From a virus (Duplodnaviria; Caudoviricetes): 64,000 nt of DNA. The notes beneath the pieces were generated by a model, which was given only the letters and a program-made list of their open reading frames with translations, searched no databases and was not told the origin of the DNA. The stretch spans positions 1 to 64,000 of the IMG/VR virus record IMGVR_UViG_3300035424_000154; one strand, 5' to 3'. Shown one piece after another: positions 30,518 through 39,759 of this stretch (positions are counted from its first letter, which is position 1; the number at the start of each line of letters is the position of its first letter). The position numbers and the translations under genes are program-made.

Positions 30518-30823
30518 ATGAACAGTATGCTATTCAGCAAGCAGTCAGCGCCTACCCCCCCCATCTCGCACGACATTCTCATGGAAAAGCAGAACGAGGT
30601 GGCTCGGCTGGCCCGACAAGCAAACGAGGCAGTTGACCTCGTGACCCGCACTATCAACGATTTGGAGGGTATCAACCAGCAGATCGACGGTGCATTGTCT
30701 GAGATCGACGCCTACGCTCAGGAGCTGGCCGCGACTCGTGCGGCTATGTCCAAACAGCGGAGCAACAATACCGCTATCATTTCTAACTTCGCAAAGCTCC
30801 TGGATACCAGCAGCGCGGAGTAG
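30518..30823 (+). CDS. Coiled-coil hypothetical protein
   Basis: AAAGGAG RBS, heptad-like pattern. Confidence 0.75.
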   Translation: MNSMLFSKQSAPTPPISHDILMEKQNEVARLARQANEAVDLVTRTINDLEGINQQIDGALSEIDAYAQELAATRAAMSKQRSNNTAIISNFAKLLDTSSAE

Positions 30824-30838
30824 TAACCAATGAGATTG

Positions 30839-30890
30839 GGACGCTAACAGCCATTTTACAATATCAATTTTTCTTTGACACAATGCGTCC
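30839..30890 (+). ncRNA. Free hairpin with ACAGC(C)A module (variant)
   Basis: GGACGC-TAACAGCCA...AAT-GCGTCC. Confidence 0.55.
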
Positions 30891-30902
30891 TATGAAGCCC
30901 AT

Positions 30903-30993
30903 GGAGGGGTAAGCCTAATTGGTAAGGCCCCGGTTTGCTAAACCGGCAGTAACCCGAAAGGGCGTATGGGTTCGAGTCCCATCCCCTTCGCCA
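30903..30993 (+). tRNA. tRNA-Ser(GCT)
   Basis: Cloverleaf with CCGGT-TTGCTAA-ACCGG, long variable arm, GGTTCGAGTCC T arm, G73, encoded CCA. Confidence 0.95.
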
Positions 30994-31044
30994 GGACAGT
31001 GCATCCACACAGTCCATAACAATGTGGAGAACTTCTGGCACCTC

Positions 31045-31064
31045 CTCTCTCTCTCTCTCTCTCT
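31045..31064 (+). repeat. (CT)10 microsatellite
   Basis: Direct reading. Confidence 0.9.
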
Positions 31065-31111
31065 TTGACGGCGGGAAAGACCGCTGACAGCCTGGAAAGA
31101 CAGGCGCATAT

Positions 31112-31223
31112 GGGAAGCGTCTGGTAGGCAGCATTACAGTGTAATAGACGGCGGACACTTACAGCAATTTTACATAAAAAGACTTGAAATCTTTTGCTTG
31201 CGGTTCGACTCCGCAGCTCCCCA
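31112..31223 (+). ncRNA. tRNA-like RNA with ACAGCAA insert; residual TGA anticodon arm
   Basis: Acceptor GGGAAGC/GCTCCCC, T arm TGCGG-TTCGACT-CCGCA, AAAGA-CTTGAAA-TCTTT arm; degenerate D arm; ACAGCAA at 31161. Confidence 0.75.
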
Positions 31224-31263
31224 CAAAGCCGTCATAGCGATTCTCAGAAAGGAGGTTCGTGCC

Positions 31264-31293
31264 GTGAACAGAGTACGCGACCAGACCATTTGA
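31264..31293 (+). CDS. 9-codon mini-ORF MNRVRDQTI
   Basis: AAAGGAGG RBS 8 nt before GTG. Confidence 0.4.
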   Translation: MNRVRDQTI

Positions 31294-31403
31294 GCTATCT
31301 ATGGAAAAATGTATTCGGCTGAAATGTATGGGGCGGTGCCCCGACAAAATGTGAACCGCTCACAAAAGTGCGGAAAATTGGGACGCAGTTAAGGAGGCTC
31401 TGC

Positions 31404-31433
31404 ATGAATAAAGCACGAGACAAGCCCTGGTAG
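31404..31433 (+). CDS. 9-codon mini-ORF MNKARDKPW
   Basis: AAGGAGG RBS 6 nt before ATG. Confidence 0.4.
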   Translation: MNKARDKPW

Positions 31434-31480
31434 CGGATGAACCAATCGTACATTCGATCTGATGATTTTTGAACAACATA

Positions 31481-31530
31481 TGGACGCTAACAGCAAATCA
31501 TTCATAAATTTGAAAAACAAAATGCGTCCA
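31481..31530 (+). ncRNA. Free hairpin with ACAGCAA module
   Basis: TGGACGC-TAACAGCAA...AAT-GCGTCCA. Confidence 0.6.
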
Positions 31531-31572
31531 CTACACATCTGGCGAACGCCATTCATGGATATAGCGGTTTAT

Positions 31573-31629
31573 AGGGGCTTCCGTTTCCAATGTGTTTCAG
31601 ATGACACAGACAGCAATTAAAAAGCCCCT
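31573..31629 (+). ncRNA. Free hairpin with ACAGCAA module
   Basis: AGGGGCTT...AAT-GTGT..ACAC-AGACAGCAA...AAGCCCCT. Confidence 0.55.
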
Positions 31630-31634
31630 GATAT

Positions 31635-31751
31635 GCGGGGATAGCTCAGTGGATAGAGCGGCGGTATAAGAAATGTGGAACGGGTATTTCACTAACAGCA
31701 AAATTCTTGGGGAACCGTAAGTCGTAGGTTCGATTCCTACTCCCTGCACCA
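31635..31751 (+). ncRNA. tRNA-like RNA (117 nt) with ACAGCAA insert in the anticodon loop
   Basis: Acceptor GCGGGGA/TCCCTGC, A73+CCA, full D and T arms; GCGGT/ACCGT stem encloses an expanded region with ACAGCAA at 31695. Confidence 0.85.
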
Positions 31752-31835
31752 GCCGTTTGGGAACGGTGCATACAATCAAATCTCCTTTGCATGACGGTGG
31801 GAACGACCACTACTGCCGTGTAAGCGCGGCAATAT

Positions 31836-31952
31836 GCGGGCGTAGCTCAAGTGGTAGAGCAACCGACAATACAAAGTGTGTCATGGTATGACACCAACAG
31901 CAATTTCTTTGGAAAAATCAGTTTGTTGGAGGTTCGAGTCCTCCCGCCCGCA
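31836..31952 (+). ncRNA. tRNA-like RNA (Phe-like scaffold) with ACAGCAA insert
   Basis: Acceptor GCGGGCG/CGCCCGC, D and T arms canonical; GTGTCAT/ATGACAC hairpin then CAACAGCAA (31897); residual GAAAA. Confidence 0.85.
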
Positions 31953-31958
31953 TCATAT

Positions 31959-32033
31959 GCCACTGTAGCTCAGTTGGTAGAGCGCTGCAAGACAATGTTC
32001 AGGCCGTCATTGGTTCGAGTCCAATCAGTGGCA
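31959..32033 (+). ncRNA. tRNA-like RNA with degenerate anticodon arm
   Basis: Acceptor GCCACTG/CAGTGGC, perfect D and T arms, no U33-type 7-nt loop. Confidence 0.75.
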
Positions 32034-32214
32034 AGTTAATTTTTCACGAAGATGCAATCGCCAGCGTTGTGTCGGGAGTAAGTGGCTGGAAGTCCTCGAA
32101 GTACAAGGGGCCGTCTAAGGGTGTTCAGCAAAGGACGTAAAATAAGTGTAGTAACCGTGCAAATCGGAACGTCTGGGAAGTGTGCTACTCCCACCTGTGA
32201 GAGCCAGGATTATA

Positions 32215-32327
32215 TGTGTGGTGGCGGAATATGTAGACGCAAGTGGTTCAGGCGTGAGAACCGCCCGGAGTGTGCGCACACAAACGGCAGAAGACGCTTT
32301 GCGAGGTGAAAATCCTCGCCCACACAT
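32215..32327 (+). ncRNA. Leu/Ser-type tRNA-like RNA with two extra hairpins and aberrant T loop
   Basis: TGTGTGG/CCACACA, GCGGAATATGTAGACGC D arm, CGAGG-TGAAAAT-CCTCG T arm; no anticodon loop. Confidence 0.65.
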
Positions 32328-32334
32328 ATGATAA

Positions 32335-32452
32335 GCCAGGGTAGCTCAGTCGGTAGAGCACGTATCAATGCGTATCCAAGGAAACGCTTACAGCAATTTT
32401 TAAAAAGGACTTTTTAATCCCGTGGTCGTGGGTTCGAGTCCCACCCTTGGCA
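32335..32452 (+). ncRNA. tRNA-like RNA (Lys-like scaffold) with ACAGCAA insert
   Basis: Acceptor GCCAGGG/CCTTGGC; insert splits the 5' anticodon strand CG|GGA-CTTTTTAA-TCCCG; ACAGCAA at 32390. Confidence 0.85.
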
Positions 32453-32571
32453 CAAAACGCTTTGTTTCTGGTTTCTTGGGCGTATAACCAACTAAACCAG
32501 CGGGGGCCAAATTTTCGGTGCAGACAACGATAAGTGGGAACCGATGACCGCTCGGAAAGACGAGCAATTAT

Positions 32572-32676
32572 GCCGGGATAGCTCAGCGGTAGAGCAGTAT
32601 CGGACGGTACCGCCGACAGAATGTACATTCTGGACATTTAATCTACAGGTGGCAGGTTCGACTCCTGCTCCCGGCG
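32572..32676 (+). ncRNA. tRNA-like RNA (Asn-like scaffold, G73) with a two-hairpin insert
   Basis: GCCGGGA/TCCCGGC; insert splits GTA|GA-CATTTAA-TCTAC; includes palindrome CAGAATGTACATTCTG and ACAGAA variant. Confidence 0.8.
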
Positions 32677-32681
32677 TTCAT

Positions 32682-32803
32682 GCGGCAGTGGTGAAGTGGT
32701 AACACAGCGGTCGTCGAAATGCGAAGTGCAAAATTTCGCTAACAGCAATTTTCGGACAAAGCCAAACCGCCATGCGCAGGTTCGATTCCTGCCTGCCGCT
32801 CCA
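32682..32803 (+). ncRNA. tRNA-like RNA (Gly-like scaffold, U73+CCA) with ACAGCAA insert
   Basis: GCGGCAG/CTGCCGC; GCGGT/ACCGC stem; residual GCCAA; ACAGCAA at 32742. Confidence 0.85.
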
Positions 32804-32809
32804 TTCTCT

Positions 32810-32841
32810 GAACACAAACAGCAACAACGACAAACGTGTTC
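32810..32841 (+). ncRNA. Free ACAGCAA hairpin in the leader of the TROVE-like gene
   Basis: GAACAC-AAACAGCAA...AAC-GTGTTC, about 16 nt before the AGGAGG RBS. Confidence 0.6.
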
Positions 32842-32872
32842 CGGGTATCTCAAAATTAGGAGGTAAGAGACA

Positions 32873-34432
32873 ATGAGCAACTTTATGGATGGACTCAAGA
32901 GCACTCTCAACGACGAGCGTTCTGTCACTGAGAACGGCGCGGTCGGGTTCCGCACTACGGGCCGGTCGCTGCTGGATCTGAACTTTGCTGTGGCCTCTCT
33001 GCGGAGCGCCAGTGAGAAGGATATCCAGAATCGCTTCTCCAAGGCATTCTTCGAGGATAAGCTGACGGCAATGAAATGGCTCTTTTATGCGCGTGATGTG
33101 CGCGGTGGCCTGGGTGAGCGGCGCTTGTTCCGCGCCTGCATGGTGCCGATGGCGAAGGAGTTCCCCGAGTACGTCCGGCCCATCGTCAAGCTGATCCCTG
33201 AGTATGGACGCTGGGACGACCTGTGGTGCCTGCTGGACACGCCGGTGGCCGATGAGGTCATGCACAACGTATCTTTGCAGCTGACTGAGGACAACCACTT
33301 CTATGAGCAGAACCAGCCCATTTCTCTGCTGGCGAAGTGGATGCCGAGATGCAAGTGCCGGAACAAGGACAGGCGGCGTTATGCCACGATGTTGCGGGGA
33401 TACCTTAACCTGACCGAGCGTGACTACCAGCACACGCTGTCTGCTCTGTGCCGCCACCTGAAGGTGGTTGAGATGGATATGTCGGCTCAGAACTGGGATG
33501 GCATTGACTATCAGCGTGTCCCCTCCCGTGCCAACCTGCAGTATAACAGTGCGTTCCTGCGGCACGACGAGGATCGGCGGCGGGCGTTCTTGGCGGCGGT
33601 TGAGAAGGGCGAAGCGAAGATCAACGCTTCTGTTCTGTTCCCTCATGATATCGTGCATCAGTATCGTCGTGCTGGCAGCGGCATTGACAGCAATCTGGAA
33701 ATGCTGTGGAAAAACCTGCCTGACATGGTGCAGGGTTGCGGCAATACCATCGTGGTGGCCGATGGTTCCGGCAGTATGAGTGTCAACGTGGGTGGTACCA
33801 ACGTGTCTGCTCTGGAGGTCGCAAACGCACTGGCGATCTATTTTGCTGAGCGTTCCTCCGGCCAGTTCAAGGATCAGTATATCACCTTCTCTGAGCGTCC
33901 CCAGCTGGTGGATTTGAGCCACGGGAAGAATCTCCGCGAAAAGCTGAGGATTGCGGCAACTCATAACGAAGTTGCCAACACCAACGTCGAGGCGGTGTTT
34001 GACCTGATTCTTACCACGGCAATTAACAAGCACATGGAGCAGAGCGAGTTGCCGGCCAATATCCTTATCATTTCTGATATGGAGTTTGACAGCTGCGCCA
34101 CTACCAACGCTCAGCCTCGTAGGGGCTACAGCTGGGGGTACAGTAGCTGTGTGGCCCCTACTTCTACCCTGTTTGAGGTGATCGCCAAGCGATATGCTGA
34201 CGCCGGATACCAGCTTCCTCGTCTGGTGTTCTGGAATGTCAATTCCCGTACTGGCACCATCCCTGTTAAGGAGAACGATTTGGGGGTCGCCCTGGTTAGT
34301 GGCTTTTCTCCCAATGTCGCCAAGATGGTTATGAGCGGCAAGCTCGATCCCTATGATTGCCTGTTGGAGGCGATCAATGCTGAGCGGTATCAGCCGGTGG
34401 ACGATGTTCTGCGGCCTGTAATTTTCACTTAG
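32873..34432 (+). CDS. TROVE-like/vWA protein (DUF2828 family)
   Basis: TENGA, RDVRGGLGERR, EYGRWDDL, LLAKWMPR helical region plus vWA MIDAS VADGSGSM, TFS, ISDMEFD, VFWNV, VSGFS. Confidence 0.85.
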   Translation: MSNFMDGLKSTLNDERSVTENGAVGFRTTGRSLLDLNFAVASLRSASEKDIQNRFSKAFFEDKLTAMKWLFYARDVRGGLGERRLFRACMVPMAKEFPEYVRPIVKLIPEYGRWDDLWCLLDTPVADEVMHNVSLQLTEDNHFYEQNQPISLLAKWMPRCKCRNKDRRRYATMLRGYLNLTERDYQHTLSALCRHLKVVEMDMSAQNWDGIDYQRVPSRANLQYNSAFLRHDEDRRRAFLAAVEKGEAKINASVLFPHDIVHQYRRAGSGIDSNLEMLWKNLPDMVQGCGNTIVVADGSGSMSVNVGGTNVSALEVANALAIYFAERSSGQFKDQYITFSERPQLVDLSHGKNLREKLRIAATHNEVANTNVEAVFDLILTTAINKHMEQSELPANILIISDMEFDSCATTNAQPRRGYSWGYSSCVAPTSTLFEVIAKRYADAGYQLPRLVFWNVNSRTGTIPVKENDLGVALVSGFSPNVAKMVMSGKLDPYDCLLEAINAERYQPVDDVLRPVIFT

Positions 34433-34448: not shown

Positions 34449-34527
34449 CGACAAGGAGGTTTGAATAGAGAACATACGCATTGTACCGTTCCTGTTCAAA
34501 CCTCCTTTGCTGTTAGGAGTGTGTAAA

Positions 34528-35676
34528 ATGATCTATCTGGACAACGCGGCCACAACTCCTACTTTCTCAGAGGTTTTGGAAGCCATGTTGCCATGGTTCC
34601 AGCCTGAGCGAGTGGGCAACCCTGGAAGTATTCATACCCAAGGCGTCAAAGCCCGTAACGCTGTTGAGAAAGCCCGTAAACAAGTGGCGCGGATGATTGG
34701 CGCTGAACCTTCTGAGATTTTTTTCACTTCTGGTGGAACAGAGTCCAACAACACATGGTTGCAATGTGCTAAAGACAGAGTTGTGCAGAGGCCAATTATC
34801 TTAACCACTAAGATTGAGCATCATTCTGTAATCGAGCCGATTGAACACAGTTCCTACCACCGTGCAGAGTATGTCAAGGTTTATCGTGACGGTTCAGTTA
34901 ATCTTGACGACTTGGAACGGTTGCTCCAGCTTCATCGTGAAGAAGTTGGCGGCGTCTCCATTATGTGGGTGAATAATGAGCTGGGAACGGTCAACCCCAT
35001 TAAAGAAATCGGAACGCTTTGCAAAAAGTACAATGTGCTGTTCCATACAGATGCGGTACAGGCAGCAGGCCATGTTGCTATGGACGTTCATGATTGCAAT
35101 GTGGACTTTCTTTCGCTCTCTGGTCACAAATTCGGCGCTCCTTTGGGTACTGGCGTGCTGTACATCAGTAACTCTATCCGAAAACATCCGTTGATCGTTG
35201 GTGGTGGACAAGAACGAGAGATGCGAGGCGGCACAGAGAACGTACCCGGAATTGTGGGCATCGGTAGAGCCGCCGAGATCGTAACTGGCCGACTGTTGGT
35301 CAATAGGCAGTTGTGGAGCTACCATCGCTCTGTGTTTTTGACTGAGCTTGGTAAAAATATGTATGGGGAGTTCAAAATCAACGGCGACACAGAGAATTAC
35401 CCTTCAAATATTATCAGCATGACGATTCCCGGCGTGAACAGTGAATCACTTTTGTTGCTGTTGGATCAGCAGGATGTTTATATCTCTGCTGGCTCTGCGT
35501 GTAGTGCGGCCAGTTCTGAACCTTCACACGTTTTGCAAGGGGTTGGGATTTCCAATGAAGATGCGGCTTGCACTGTGCGAATCTCTATGGGGTTTGCGCC
35601 CAGTTATGTCGATATGGTGCAGGCAGCTGAAGTCATTGCAAACACAGTGCATAGGCTGAAATCTATGTATCCGTGA
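34528..35676 (+). CDS. iscS: Cysteine desulfurase (IscS/NifS family)
   Basis: YLDNAATT, FTSGGTESNN, HTDAVQA, SGHKF (PLP Lys), SAGSACS (catalytic Cys). Confidence 0.95.
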   Translation: MIYLDNAATTPTFSEVLEAMLPWFQPERVGNPGSIHTQGVKARNAVEKARKQVARMIGAEPSEIFFTSGGTESNNTWLQCAKDRVVQRPIILTTKIEHHSVIEPIEHSSYHRAEYVKVYRDGSVNLDDLERLLQLHREEVGGVSIMWVNNELGTVNPIKEIGTLCKKYNVLFHTDAVQAAGHVAMDVHDCNVDFLSLSGHKFGAPLGTGVLYISNSIRKHPLIVGGGQEREMRGGTENVPGIVGIGRAAEIVTGRLLVNRQLWSYHRSVFLTELGKNMYGEFKINGDTENYPSNIISMTIPGVNSESLLLLLDQQDVYISAGSACSAASSEPSHVLQGVGISNEDAACTVRISMGFAPSYVDMVQAAEVIANTVHRLKSMYP

Positions 35677-35679
35677 TTT

Positions 35680-35695
35680 GAGGCAAAATACATAG
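35680..35695 (+). promoter_or_regulatory. 17-bp repeated motif (one A short)
   Basis: GAGGCAAAATACATAG before the AAGGAGG RBS. Confidence 0.6.
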
Positions 35696-35715
35696 TTCAA
35701 AGGAGGCGGGTTACT

Positions 35716-36132
35716 TTGAGTTACGATATCTCATTGGTTGATCCCGTTACAAAAGAAACTCTCTTACTGGACGCTCCCCATCAGATTAAGGGCGGCACCT
35801 ATGCCATAGGCGGTACTCGTGAGGCGGAGTTAAACATCACCTATAACTACGCCAGATGGTATCGCATGGAAGGTGTTTTCCCGGAGCGAGAGTGGAGCGG
35901 TATTCGTTCTATCTACGGCATGGCAGGAGCTGAGAGTATCCCGGTGCTCAAAAACGCAATCGCTGTATTGAAAAACTCCGATCAGGAGCTTTCTGATGAG
36001 GAGCAGGCCGAATATGAGAAGCAGGGTGTGACCGGTTACTGGATGCCAACAAAGGTAAATGCAATGAAACCCCTGCATAGTCTGTTGGCATTTGCGCAAA
36101 TGCGCCCAGATGGTGTGTGGAATGGAGACTAA
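35716..36132 (+). CDS. Hypothetical phage protein (138 aa)
   Basis: AAGGAGG RBS, TTG start. Confidence 0.8.
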   Translation: MSYDISLVDPVTKETLLLDAPHQIKGGTYAIGGTREAELNITYNYARWYRMEGVFPEREWSGIRSIYGMAGAESIPVLKNAIAVLKNSDQELSDEEQAEYEKQGVTGYWMPTKVNAMKPLHSLLAFAQMRPDGVWNGD

Positions 36133-36460
36133 CTTAAATGTTTCTGCCATCCTTGACTTCATTAGCAATTTTAAGGATGCTCAGGACACATTTCTTTACG
36201 GTTGCTGTTACTGGTTCGCCTTTATCCTCAATGAGCGCTTTGGCGGGACGACGATGTATCTTCCAGTGGAAAATCACTTTGTTCAAGCAATAGGCAAGCG
36301 TTTATATGATGTATCTGGTGACGTAACGGCAGAATACCTAACCGCCAGGATTATTCCGTGGGCGGCGATGGAGCAATATGATTCAACCATGTACCGGAGG
36401 CTAATCCGGGACTGCATCAATAAGGAGAGATTCGACGATGACAGTATTAACTCAGGATGA
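36122..36460 (+). CDS. Hypothetical protein (112 aa)
   Basis: Overlap-coupled start; FLYGCCYWFA motif. Confidence 0.7.
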   Translation: METNLNVSAILDFISNFKDAQDTFLYGCCYWFAFILNERFGGTTMYLPVENHFVQAIGKRLYDVSGDVTAEYLTARIIPWAAMEQYDSTMYRRLIRDCINKERFDDDSINSG

Positions 36461-37305
36461 GCAGAAGCGCCAGAAGATTATGGCGCGTATGCAGGAACAC
36501 TTGGTTCCCGTCCTGGAACATTGTAGGGGGGGGGTGGGTCGGCCTCTTTCTGCAAGGTTCCCAAAACTATAACCTTGATTATGAGGGAAGTGACATTGAT
36601 ACCAAAGCTATCTTGCTTCCCAGTTTTTCCGACTTTGTTTGGAACAGAAAACCAACCAGTACGACCCACATCATGGAAAATGATGAGCACGTAGATTTCA
36701 AGGATATTCGGCTCATGTTTGACTGCTTCAAAAAGCAGAATGTCAACTTCGTCGAAATCCTGTTTACTCCCTACTGCATTATCAATCCTATGTATGAGGA
36801 TCTGCTTCAGCCGGTGCTAGATGCCCGAGAGGAGATTGCCCGCTACAACAATTATGCTGGTATGAGGTGCATTATGGGTATGGCTTACGAGAAGCAGAAA
36901 GCAATGGAGCACCCCTACCCTGCCACAATCGACAAAATCAAAGTGTATGGATATGATCCGAAGCAACTCCATCATGCTTTGAGGCTGCGGGAGTTTATGA
37001 CCAGATACATGGCCGGCGAAAATTATGCTGATTGCTTGGTTAGCAAACAGCGTGATTATTTGAAAGATGTAAAGAAGGGTTGTTACTCCCTGGACGAAGC
37101 TCGTGCTTTGATGAATGTTACGATCAAATCCATGGCTGAGGATAAGCAGCAGTATATGGAGGCTGTTCCGGCCATTATCAATGAGCACGCCGACGAGGTG
37201 CTGAAAACGGCCACGGTTGAAATTCTCAAAAGGAGCTTCCTGAACGAGATTCAAAGAGGTGATCAAGTTGCAAACGTTTTACATGATGGTTGGCCTGCCC
37301 GGTAG
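36438..37305 (+). CDS. RlaP-like Pol-beta nucleotidyltransferase, frameshifted at G9 (36526-36534)
   Basis: GSQNYNLDYEGSDIDTKAI signature; AAGGAGAG RBS + ATG 36438 is in frame only if the G run is 8. Confidence 0.8.
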
Positions 37306-38185
37306 TGGTAAATCACTCACTGCCAGGACTTTCCCCAATACCATCATCCATTCCAGCGATGCAATCCGTGCGGAAATCTTGGGTGACGAGAACCGGCAAG
37401 ACCAACAAGAGCTGGTGTTCCAGACGCTTCACGAGCGAGTGCTGAATGATCTGGCAAGCGGCAAGAATGTCGTGTATGACGCCACCAATATCAACTACAA
37501 GCGTCGTATGGAGTTCTTGCAGCAGGTAAACGCGATGAAGCTCCCCAGCCTTAGAACGGTCTGTGTCTTTTTGACCACTCCGTATGAGGAGTGCATAGAG
37601 CGCAATGCCAACCGAGAGCGCTCTGTTCCAAGGTCTGTAATTCGTAGAATGTATGAGAAAATCGACATTCCTATGAAAGCAGAAGGATGGGACGAAATTT
37701 GGGTTTTTGGCGACATAAAGGATTACTATGGCCGGTTAGAAACCTTTATGAGCCATCTGTCCAAGCTGGAGCATGATAATCCCCACCATACATACACAGT
37801 CGGTCAGCATTGTATGGCGGCATGGCAATACCTGATCAGCCACTATAAGGACTACGATGCTTGTCTGCTCCGTGCCACTCTCTTGCACGATATCGGCAAG
37901 GAAAAAACCAAAGTGTTCTATGACACTAAAGGCAACCCCACGGATATTGCCCACTACTATCATCATGAGCGTGTGGGCGCTTATGACAGTTTCTGCTACA
38001 CCAGCGATCTCAGCAATGACCAACGCCTGATGGTTGCGCTTTTGATTCGCTGGCATATGTGGCCGTATGTAGTGGAAAAGTCAGATAACCCGAACAAAAC
38101 CGCTCGTAAAGTGCGGCGGTTGCTCGGTGAAGATATCTGGAAGCAGGTTGCGGTCTTGAATGACTGTGATCGACACGCACACTAA
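37259..38185 (+). CDS. Polynucleotide-kinase-like P-loop (AAA_33) + HD phosphohydrolase fusion
   Basis: GLPGSGKS, SSDAIR, YDATN; HTYTVGQH...LLHDIGK...HE...WHM. Confidence 0.85.
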   Translation: MIKLQTFYMMVGLPGSGKSLTARTFPNTIIHSSDAIRAEILGDENRQDQQELVFQTLHERVLNDLASGKNVVYDATNINYKRRMEFLQQVNAMKLPSLRTVCVFLTTPYEECIERNANRERSVPRSVIRRMYEKIDIPMKAEGWDEIWVFGDIKDYYGRLETFMSHLSKLEHDNPHHTYTVGQHCMAAWQYLISHYKDYDACLLRATLLHDIGKEKTKVFYDTKGNPTDIAHYYHHERVGAYDSFCYTSDLSNDQRLMVALLIRWHMWPYVVEKSDNPNKTARKVRRLLGEDIWKQVAVLNDCDRHAH

Positions 38186-38206
38186 ATGAAATAGGAGGAA
38201 ACAATC

Positions 38207-38717
38207 ATGAACCCGAATCAGTATCAGATCTCTATGCGTCCCGCTTTTGAGCCGGAGGCCATCCACGTTGAGCCATTCAATCCGATCAGTGTTCTGCTTG
38301 AGGCGTTGGGTGGTACCCCCCCCCATCATTGCGCCTAATGGTGAGCGTGACCGTTTCGCTGACGGTTGGAACGCTGCCATGCAGCACATGAGGGACAACC
38401 CGCCTGCACCCGCTCCCCTTCCGCTGCCTACGAATGTGATCTTCAACAACCCGGCCACCATTGTGTACTGGAACGACGGTACCAAGACTGTGGTGAAGTG
38501 TCAGCCCGGAGATGTGTTCAGCGCTGAGGCTGGCCTGACCACTGCTATGCTCAAGAAGTACATGGGTAACGACAACACCTTCAACCGGGTTATCAACGAG
38601 TGGTTGAAGCACACTGGCGAGTATAAGCCGTCTGTTGCTCCTGCTTTGCCGGCAGCTGAGACGCCCGCCGCCCTGCCTGCTCCTACGGATCAGGGAGCGC
38701 CTGAAATGGTGGAGTAA
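38207..38717 (+). CDS. Hypothetical phage protein, frameshifted at C9 (38316-38324)
   Basis: AGGAGG RBS + ATG 38207; C8 joins it to the frame with VIFNNPATIVYWNDGTKTVVKC. Confidence 0.7.
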
Positions 38718-38720
38718 GCT

Positions 38721-38828
38721 ATGGAGGGCGTTATCATTCCAATCGTGGTGTTGGGGCTGTTGTTCATACTGACAAGATCGAATGATGACGACAATAACGG
38801 GAATTGGGGAGGTGGGTGTTTTGCATAG
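38721..38828 (+). CDS. Small membrane peptide (35 aa)
   Basis: MEGVIIPIVVLGLLFILTRSNDDD...; follows the previous stop closely. Confidence 0.5.
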   Translation: MEGVIIPIVVLGLLFILTRSNDDDNNGNWGGGCFA

Positions 38829-39759
38829 TCGAGAGCAATTAGAAGAAATGCAGCGCCTACCTCTTTCCCGTAAAATCCAGATCACCACGGCCAGAATTAT
38901 TGAGTGGTACCAACACTACGATGGCAAGGTTTATGTGGCTTTTTCTGGCGGCAAGGACTCAACAGTTCTCCTTGATATTGTACGGCGCATCTATCCTGAT
39001 GTGCCAGCAGTATTTTCGGACACTGGATTGGAGTTTCCAGAAGTTAGAGCATTTGCCAGGAGTTGCGAAAATGTCACCATTATCAAACCTGAGATGAATT
39101 TCCGGCAGGTCATTGAGAAGTACGGATACCCTGTTGTTTCTAAACGTGTGGCTGACGCCGTGAAATACGGTCATAAGCCAGGGTCTTTTCGCTGGAAGGA
39201 GCTACATGGCGAAATTATGCGGAGCAACGGGACTCCTTCAGAGTTCAACTGTGAGAAATGGTGCTATCTGCTCAACGCACCCTTTAAGGTGTCTGCTCGG
39301 TGTTGTGCCGTCATGAAAAAGCGGCCTATGAAGAAATATTCCAAAGAAACCGGGCGAGTGCCTATCATTGCGACAATGGCAGACGAAAGCCGATCCCGTC
39401 GTGCTACTTGGTTGCGTTTGGGGTGTAACGCTTTTGCTGCCAAAAAGCCCAGCTCTCAACCTATGTCATTCTGGACTGAGGACGATGTACTTGAATATCT
39501 CTATACCTACAAAATTCCCTATGCCTCGGTTTATGGCGAGATCGTCAAGACTGACGGGGGGGGGTGGACAACAACCGGAGAAAAACGTACTGGTTGTGTC
39601 TTTTGTGCCTTTGGTGCTCATTTGGAAAAGGCTCCAAACCGTTTCCAGCGACTAAAGGTTACTCACCCGAAACTCTGGAATTATTGTATGAAGCCATGGG
39701 AAGAACATGGCTTGGGTATGCGGCGAGTGCTTGAGTACATTGGAGTCCCAATAGAATAA
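38821..39759 (+). CDS. PAPS-reductase-family (PP-loop, Fe-S) protein
   Basis: AFSGGKDS, SDTGLEFPE, CC, RTGCVFC; start uncertain. Confidence 0.85.
   Translation: MHSREQLEEMQRLPLSRKIQITTARIIEWYQHYDGKVYVAFSGGKDSTVLLDIVRRIYPDVPAVFSDTGLEFPEVRAFARSCENVTIIKPEMNFRQVIEKYGYPVVSKRVADAVKYGHKPGSFRWKELHGEIMRSNGTPSEFNCEKWCYLLNAPFKVSARCCAVMKKRPMKKYSKETGRVPIIATMADESRSRRATWLRLGCNAFAAKKPSSQPMSFWTEDDVLEYLYTYKIPYASVYGEIVKTDGGGWTTTGEKRTGCVFCAFGAHLEKAPNRFQRLKVTHPKLWNYCMKPWEEHGLGMRRVLEYIGVPIE

Follow-up and report, generated by a model that had tools for sequence, protein, structure and literature searches.

A tRNA-borne RNA module that travels with a Ro60-like DUF2828 gene in phages, a probable relative of the Ro60/Y-RNA particle

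The IMG/VR virus record IMGVR_UViG_3300035424_000154 is an 87-kb phage record, 63% complete, from the mouse gut, and every listed matching sample with a named organism is mouse or mouse gut. Its first 64 kb, the stretch analyzed here and called the window, contains at positions 30839–32841 an array of one normal tRNA-Ser and seven tRNA-shaped RNAs (RNAs A to G), and 70 nt after the last of them begins a gene for a Ro60-like protein of the DUF2828 family. A short RNA module is shared by most of the tRNA-shaped RNAs, and this module travels with the Ro60-shaped gene in many unrelated phages. Because the two travel together, they probably make up a so far undescribed relative of the Ro60/Y-RNA particle. 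The reading that we favor, with a probability of roughly two in three, is that the module is a docking handle for the Ro60-like protein that would stay in the RNA, and that the tRNA body would display a fast-changing anticodon arm.

In the module an A-rich run that ends in AAU is followed by a stem (P2) with G first and C last. Then come two free bases, ACAGCAA as an unvarying heptamer in this order, and finally a stretch rich in U. The module is complete in five tRNA bodies, those starting at 31112, 31635, 31836, 32335 and 32682, where the insert measures 40–58 nt. Four more copies are located outside tRNA bodies, one free and in the same order (type 1) and three permuted (type 2). The heptamer is found eight times on the + strand within 1.7 kb, and the whole window has 29 copies versus 10.7 expected. 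A covariance model, R1, was built from 41 module copies taken from many phages. When the 64 kb were searched with it on both strands, only the six type 1 copies of the array matched, the free one at 31583–31625 and the five in tRNA bodies. The latter scored 21–41 bits, in agreement with a preliminary description, made from the letters alone, in which a shared module had been noticed in the same five RNAs. In the permuted copies (30839–30890, 31481–31530 and 32810–32841) the 3′ strand of P2 comes first and is followed by NN-ACAGCAA, a linker ending in AAU and the 5′ strand of P2. Since both topologies have the same junction, the constant feature is one end of a helix, where AAU precedes the 5′ strand and NN-ACAGCAA follows the 3′ strand, and the closure at the other end of the module helix is free to vary.

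The P2 stem is real. Among 74 R1 hits at loci located through the protein, as described below, P2 was 93% paired, with double-sided changes at 7 of 7 pairs, and its covariation score was 0.79 versus 0.25 after shuffling and at most 0.20 when the partner strand was slid. The stem has about 7 bp, and the pairs at its junction end are G-C, Y-R and G-C. ACAGCAA is near invariant in the same hits, with no change at the C, the G, the second C and the last A. An outer helix (P1) was considered as well. In a fixed register it was only 57% paired, and in a free register the linkers paired over 3.5 bp on average, the same as with permuted partners (3.47). P1 is not claimed, because this pairing is no better than that with permuted partners.

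The association between the module and the gene was searched for in both directions. Starting from the RNA, the pattern ACAGCAA, 20–40 nt, GGTTCGANTCC was run against IMG/VR and yielded 119 loci. When every open reading frame (ORF) of the phage was compared with them by tblastn, a DUF2828 homologue, at 25–80% identity, was present in 38 of the 119, and the next commonest protein of the window in 6. In the loci of this set compared by eye, the DUF2828 gene was on the same strand as the module, usually within about 1 kb. Starting from the protein, 80 loci were selected by protein profile alone, the best 80 of at least 563 relatives in the viral collection. The gene's strand was shared by 115 of the 116 R1 hits in these loci, and all hits, which come from about 50 loci, were at most 1.7 kb upstream or 1.2 kb downstream of the gene. 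Of 79 loci, 50 had a permuted module in the 200 nt that precede the start codon, versus 4 of 79 in an intragenic control. No other protein family was conserved around the gene in the 80 loci. A DUF2828 gene with the module directly upstream is also present in a bacterial genome, "Bacterium D16-76". The co-occurrence of the module with DUF2828 genes, on which the preliminary description had made its proposal depend, therefore held in both search directions.

The gene (32873–34432, + strand) encodes 519 amino acids. Its product has Pfam matches to DUF7788 and DUF2828 only and belongs to PHROG 850, annotated as "RNA-binding protein" (E 5e-142). A search of the PDB with the amino acid sequence returned no match to solved structures and no Ro60. 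The predicted architecture is a helical repeat ring plus a von Willebrand factor A (vWA) domain with the metal ion-dependent adhesion site (MIDAS) motif DxSGS, and the MIDAS residues D297, S299 and S301 are invariant across 29 homologues. An AlphaFold model derived from the 29 homologues had a mean predicted local distance difference test (pLDDT) value of 82.7. When the model was compared with the PDB by Foldseek, the top 13 matches were without exception Ro60/TROVE proteins, with full-length alignments (E 1.6e-7 to 1e-4; 515–597 columns; template modeling (TM) scores of 0.37–0.57), with 10–15% identity to solved Ro60. According to the model, the protein folds like Ro60, and it is Ro60-like by fold only. 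The same model bears out the earlier suggestion that the gene next to the array is TROVE-like.

The closest known system is Ro60 (Rsr) with its Y RNAs, especially the bacterial and mycobacteriophage YrlA (RF02553; Chen et al. 2014, PMC4201824). As in Ro60/YrlA loci, a gene for a ring-shaped protein of the TROVE plus vWA type is found beside small RNAs on the same strand, here within a few kb, and as in YrlA each RNA would join a protein-binding element to a tRNA-like domain. Unlike Ro60, the protein described here is of the DUF2828/DUF7788 type and has no Pfam TROVE match. The RNAs also differ. YrlA has the Ro-binding motif GNCGAAN0-1G, in a helix, near its 5′ end (PMC4201824), whereas the handle proposed here is a stem plus a single-stranded ACAGCAA. 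A search for GNCGAAN0-1G in 30800–32900 produced one match, at 31541, which is in a spacer and in none of the array RNAs. The YrlA covariance model matched 31923–31984 with 27.5 bits versus a cut-off of 69, and this match is an artefact that joins parts of two adjacent RNAs, the T arm of C and the D arm of D. In YrlA the ends of the RNA form the Ro-binding stem and the acceptor is closed, while here a complete, unpermuted tRNA keeps its own acceptor stem and bears the handle in the anticodon arm. Up to about ten RNAs per locus plus a copy in the mRNA leader are further differences. The array is thus set apart from the YrlA family, since covariance model, Ro-binding motif and topology all fail. 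Rfam 15 assigned no family to the module RNAs, an outcome that leaves the preliminary description standing on this point, and none but tRNA came near its cut-off. GenBank phage records searched with the array showed generic tRNA similarity only, and no description of the module RNA was found in the literature on DUF2828, PF11443 and Ro60-like phage RNAs.

Two other kinds of RNA are comparable. Engineered tRNA-scaffold RNAs carry a foreign RNA in the anticodon arm of a tRNA body, and the phage T4 tRNA cluster includes two stable RNAs, C and D, that are not tRNAs. The array resembles the scaffolds in that a tRNA body would serve as the stable, correctly processed carrier of another RNA element, and the T4 RNAs in the presence of presumably stable non-tRNA RNAs within a phage tRNA cluster. 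It differs in being a natural and widespread case that is coupled to a dedicated protein.

The array, all of it on the + strand, has no long conserved ORF within 30839–32841. ARAGORN called the tRNA-Ser (GCT) at 30903 as the sole normal tRNA, as the preliminary description had it, and called the RNA at 31959 with a four-base anticodon. The Rfam tRNA model matched at 30903, 31635, 31836, 31959, 32335, 32572 and 32682 with 47–54 bits, skipping 44–58 nt in the anticodon region of five of them. Six of the seven matches reached the gathering score; the one at 32572 was obtained only in an E-value run of the region. RNAs B to G therefore have the cloverleaf of a decoding tRNA (47–54 bits), given that an insert of 44–58 nt is tolerated in five. 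Open, tRNA-like acceptor stems of 7 bp are present in RNAs A to G, three of which have an encoded CCA. A 7-nt anticodon loop with U33 as encoded is found in none of B, C, E, F and G.

The array opens with a type 2 module at 30839–30890, read from the sequence as GGACGC, UA, ACAGCCA, a 31-nt A/U-rich linker ending in AAU, and GCGUCC; in its homologue in the relative L002 the linker holds an anticodon-arm-like hairpin with the loop CTTGAAA. The class II tRNA-Ser follows at 30903–30993, with an encoded CCA and an Rfam score of 52.6 bits. RNA A (31112–31223; R1, 21.5 bits) is the weaker member, matching the tRNA model with 18 bits over its 3′ two thirds (31153–31223) and having a 3-bp D stem. Its module (31130–31176) stands between the D arm and an intact anticodon arm (31177–31195; loop CTTGAAA, anticodon UGA). 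Its Ser anticodon is carried by a body with a 3-nt variable loop, and the orthologues in L001 and L002 keep Ser-type anticodons (GGA). Next are the two free modules. The stem finder identified a type 2 copy at 31481–31530 (UGGACGC, UA, ACAGCAA, a 27-nt linker ending in AAU, GCGUCCA), which is conserved in L001. The type 1 copy (R1, 24.5 bits) is enclosed, according to its fold, by the stem GGGGCUU/AAGCCCC in an element at 31574–31628.

RNA B (31635–31751), with a normal D arm, T arm and CCA, scored 54.4 bits in Rfam with a 46-nt insert and 36.9 bits with R1; its module (31666–31710) lies within the anticodon loop, which leaves the Pro-like remnant UUGGGGA. RNA C (31836–31952; Rfam 48.7 bits, R1 40.7 bits) has its module at 31869–31912 in the anticodon region, a mismatch in the anticodon stem and an ambiguous identity. 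After a gap of 6 nt comes RNA D (31959–32033; Rfam 50.1 bits), without a large insert, in which the anticodon stem is mismatched and the loop is an aberrant one of 8 nt, AGACAAUG, without U33. In RNA E (32335–32452; Rfam 47.9 bits, R1 24.6 bits) the module (32361–32405) follows nt 28 of the anticodon stem, and its deletion produces the stem CGGGA/UCCCG and the 8-nt loop CUUUUUAA. RNA F (32572–32676; Rfam 46.7 bits), read from the sequence, has after nt 29 a degenerate insert of 33 nt, a hairpin plus ACAGAAU. The insert of this RNA had been called a related one, and it is, although R1 missed it. Without it the stem is GUAGA/UCUAC and the loop CAUUUAA, with A33. RNA G (32682–32803; Rfam 49.7 bits, R1 30.9 bits), 5 nt further on, has a CCA and a module (32712–32757) in the anticodon loop; the remnant is Gly-like with A33, AAGCCAA, and its orthologues have AAGCCAA or AAUCCAA. 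The last copy of the module, type 2, is in the 5′ leader of the Ro60-like gene (32810–32841; GAACAC, AA, ACAGCAA, an 11-nt linker, GUGUUC) and ends 31 nt before the ATG. In the leaders of four relatives (L018, L028, L037 and L134, at most 130 nt upstream of DUF2828) the linker of the permuted module folds into a hairpin with a 7-nt loop, CTTTTAA or CTTGAAA. As these loops are identical to tRNA anticodon loops, even the minimal forms of the module show a look-alike of an anticodon arm.

The insert had been placed in or beside the anticodon arm. A shared insert is indeed found there, and the site differs from RNA to RNA: position 26 in A, the 5′ strand of the anticodon stem in E (after nt 28) and F (after nt 29), and the anticodon loop in B, C and G. 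Elsewhere the range is wider, with a module in a D loop in the relative L001 and modules that replace the D arm, P2 serving as the acceptor stem, in L129, L130 and L035. The anticodon remnants were read as Ser (UGA), Pro (GGG or UGG), one ambiguous, Lys-like in an 8-nt loop, Lys with A33 and Gly with A33; a clear Phe, which was on the earlier list of scaffolds, was not seen.

Comparison of orthologues showed that anticodons can change while the body hardly does. In the E-type RNAs of six phages the tRNA body is nearly unchanged outside the insert, and the loop is CTTTTTAA in the window and L001, CTGTTAA in L075, L127 and L128, and CTTCTAA in L129. The RNAs L128:2478–2605 and L129:2505–2632 differ at about six of about 127 positions, two of them in the anticodon (GTT versus TCT), an apparent anticodon switch on one body. 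The A-type RNAs keep Ser anticodons (UGA, GGA) and the G-type RNAs keep Gly anticodons (GCC, UCC). In decoding tRNAs no part of the molecule is normally as conserved as the anticodon triplet. Here the triplet appears to be the most variable part, as would be expected of a displayed bait or address more than of a tRNA that decodes. Fast turnover of a displayed anticodon points to a contest between phage and host over tRNAs, in which these RNAs could act as a decoy for, or a tether to, tRNA-directed enzymes. The roles suggested in the preliminary description were that they could be decoys for anticodon nucleases or a scaffold for repair.

The state of the insert at the RNA level was assessed in RNA-library contigs from four studies. 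The RNAs appear in them with their inserts, unspliced and without mismatches, for example in 31074–31902 and 31822–32478, and the depth varies between contigs of the same phage within one RNA run. Expression, a point raised in the preliminary description, is thus suggested by libraries that may contain DNA. No joint that removes an insert was found in the contigs of the four studies, which cannot show 75-nt mature tRNAs. Positions 31037–31073 were skipped as a repeat when reads were mapped to the window. Joints such as 31988>32424 had foreign letters and came from tRNAs of other organisms, and a coverage hole at 32506–32574, seen in all four RNA runs, most likely reflects a break of the assembly at tRNA-like repeats; neither was used.

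In the mechanism that we favor, the AAU, the P2 stem of about 7 bp, the two free bases and the single-stranded ACAGCAA would form a handle that docks the Ro60-like DUF2828 protein, and the array would be a set of Y-RNA-like partner RNAs for the ring protein. Complete tRNA bodies would have received the handle as an additional arm, most often in the 5′ strand of the anticodon stem; elsewhere the handle would close small stem-loops. It would persist in the mature RNA. Processing and stability of the tRNA type would come from the tRNA body, and the triplet of its anticodon arm would change fast between related phages. The copy in the leader would probably let the protein sense the amount of free handle RNA, a feedback by which the gene may regulate itself. 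The earlier proposal, that the RNAs form a family of tRNA mimics on which the TROVE-like neighbor can dock, gains support from the checks that were run. Several points weigh against this mechanism. Co-occurrence does not equal contact, and the binding of the module by the protein is deduced from genomic coupling. The figures for heptamer invariance and for pairing are biased towards the model, since the training set of R1 was made up of exact ACAGCAA matches pre-selected for a hairpin, and P1 is unsupported beyond the A-rich and U-rich composition of the linkers. About 30 of the 80 protein-anchored loci are without a type 1 hit, and the leader copy is missing in 29 of 79 loci. The RNA libraries, besides the possible DNA, under-sample 75-nt mature tRNAs, and splicing is compatible with what they show. 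Finally, a deletion scan was carried out in which every possible stretch around 140 module copies from all loci was removed and the products were run through ARAGORN. In several dozen RNAs one unique deletion restored a perfect canonical tRNA (5-bp anticodon stem, U33, purine 37), as would be predicted for an intron.

The inserts could accordingly be mini-introns: the module would mark the intron for an endonuclease, the halves would be re-joined into ordinary decoding tRNAs, and the Ro60-like protein would hold or present the precursor. Besides the scan itself, this explanation can call on the insert sites of the uniquely solved RNAs, which are mostly after nt 28 (20 RNAs) or nt 29 (13), the rest being between 27 and 38, and on a PNK-like kinase-HD protein whose gene is 4.4 kb downstream of the array. 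The restored anticodons are diverse (Asn, Thr, Val, Pro, Arg, Ser, Lys, Asp, Leu, Trp and others). The sites are scattered (D loop, 26, 28–33, 37/38) in a way that recalls the non-canonical tRNA introns of archaea, which are also short inserts at varied positions whose precise removal restores the cloverleaf. Unlike those introns, the insert junctions have no bulge-helix-bulge and are flanked by A-rich and U-rich linkers, and the conserved core is at a variable distance from the junctions, 5–14 nt on the 5′ side and 6–13 nt on the 3′ side in nearly all of the 32 cleanest cases, so that no fixed ruler from the core could set the splice sites. The setting is a phage of bacteria, and no RtcB, splicing endonuclease (PF01974, EndA) or Rnl2-type ligase was found in the 87-kb record, incomplete as it is; next to the gene, the 80 loci have no conserved family of endonucleases or ligases in common. 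The module is also present where it could not be spliced, free, permuted, in an mRNA leader or in place of a D arm, and this counts for its retention. Removal of the insert from the window RNAs leaves non-canonical loops, of 8 nt in E and with A33 in F and G, Ser or Leu anticodons are carried by class I bodies in several relatives, and the contigs of the four RNA studies, in which short mature tRNAs could not appear, lack a spliced joint. The intron mode of ARAGORN placed introns arbitrarily (after positions 30 to 36) with inconsistent anticodons and was not taken as evidence. We consider mini-introns unlikely. A further variant, which we find unlikely, is that the handle RNAs are true pre-tRNAs and the Ro60-like ring is the recognition subunit of a phage system of tRNA splicing or licensing. 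The ring would grip the arm of the handle during removal of the insert, or would keep the tRNA in an inactive state, protected from host anticodon nucleases, and would let a decoding tRNA go only when needed; if so, there would be protein-dependent tRNA splicing in the bacterial world.

The module could instead act chiefly in cis, as a regulatory element of the DUF2828 mRNA or as a site of RNase processing, and have been copied through a co-transcribed array without being a stable protein handle. The leader of the gene is the most constant position of the module, the scan for promoters and terminators, which stayed at chance level, showed no terminator-like site between the last array RNA and the gene, and ACAG followed by an A/U-rich run resembles the old consensus of RNase E sites. 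This explanation is rather improbable in view of the many copies per locus within well-folded tRNA bodies, where processing would destroy the RNA, of a 7-bp stem that strictly covaries beside an invariant heptamer, of the identical junction in both topologies and of the coupling to one protein family only, across 25–80% identity. A small RNA element, selfish or self-cleaving, that invades tRNA genes, with DUF2828 linked by hitch-hiking, would explain the different positions in unrelated tRNA bodies and the two circular permutations, a habit of small ribozymes. The element, however, is about 30 nt with a single helix, has no Rfam ribozyme match at E values up to 10, follows the strand of the gene in all but one of 116 hits and occupies a conserved position in the leader of a single gene family, and we regard a selfish origin as very improbable.

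Other features of the region were noted. A (CT)n run of about 11 units is located at 31041–31066, between tRNA-Ser and RNA A. Two 9-codon mini-ORFs inside the array, 31264–31293 (MNRVRDQTI) and 31404–31433 (MNKARDKPW), each follow a strong GGAGG site and are both kept in L001 (MNRARDQTV and MNKARDKP); they could be leader peptides or small proteins. The spacer at 32110–32334, between RNAs D and E, has 92% identity to L001, compared with 67% for the neighboring Ro60-like proteins. It includes a 75-amino acid ORF that is frame-broken in L001 and a TCAGCAA at about 32126, and it is covered by RNA-library contigs. The fold of 32037–32334 had z = −0.07. The spacer may be a further array RNA without the ACAGCAA handle. 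Downstream of the Ro60-like gene, at 34507–39759, are genes for a class V aminotransferase of the cysteine desulfurase type, a DNA polymerase beta-type nucleotidyltransferase (PHROG 388), a polynucleotide kinase (PNK)-like kinase-HD fusion and a 3′-phosphoadenosine-5′-phosphosulfate (PAPS)-reductase/PP-loop protein. This set was found only in the closest relatives (L001 and L094) and has no general link to the RNA module.

Ro60 and Y RNAs are conserved from bacteria to humans, and it is still debated how the ring is guided to its targets by Y RNAs. The results presented here would add PHROG 850, a distant branch of the Ro60 fold that is very common in phages, with a simple RNA handle of its own and modular partner RNAs. 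The window contributes whole tRNA bodies with the handle at several sites, a census of those sites with a hot spot after nt 28–29, the turnover of anticodons between orthologues and a first, weak look at the RNA level, where unspliced forms were seen. If our interpretation is true, a domain of unknown function would be assigned a likely RNA partner, and many odd insert-bearing phage tRNA genes that tRNA finders skip or miscall would be accounted for. It would also provide a tractable system, a 30-nt handle and one protein, to learn what a Ro-type ring does with tRNA-shaped RNAs.

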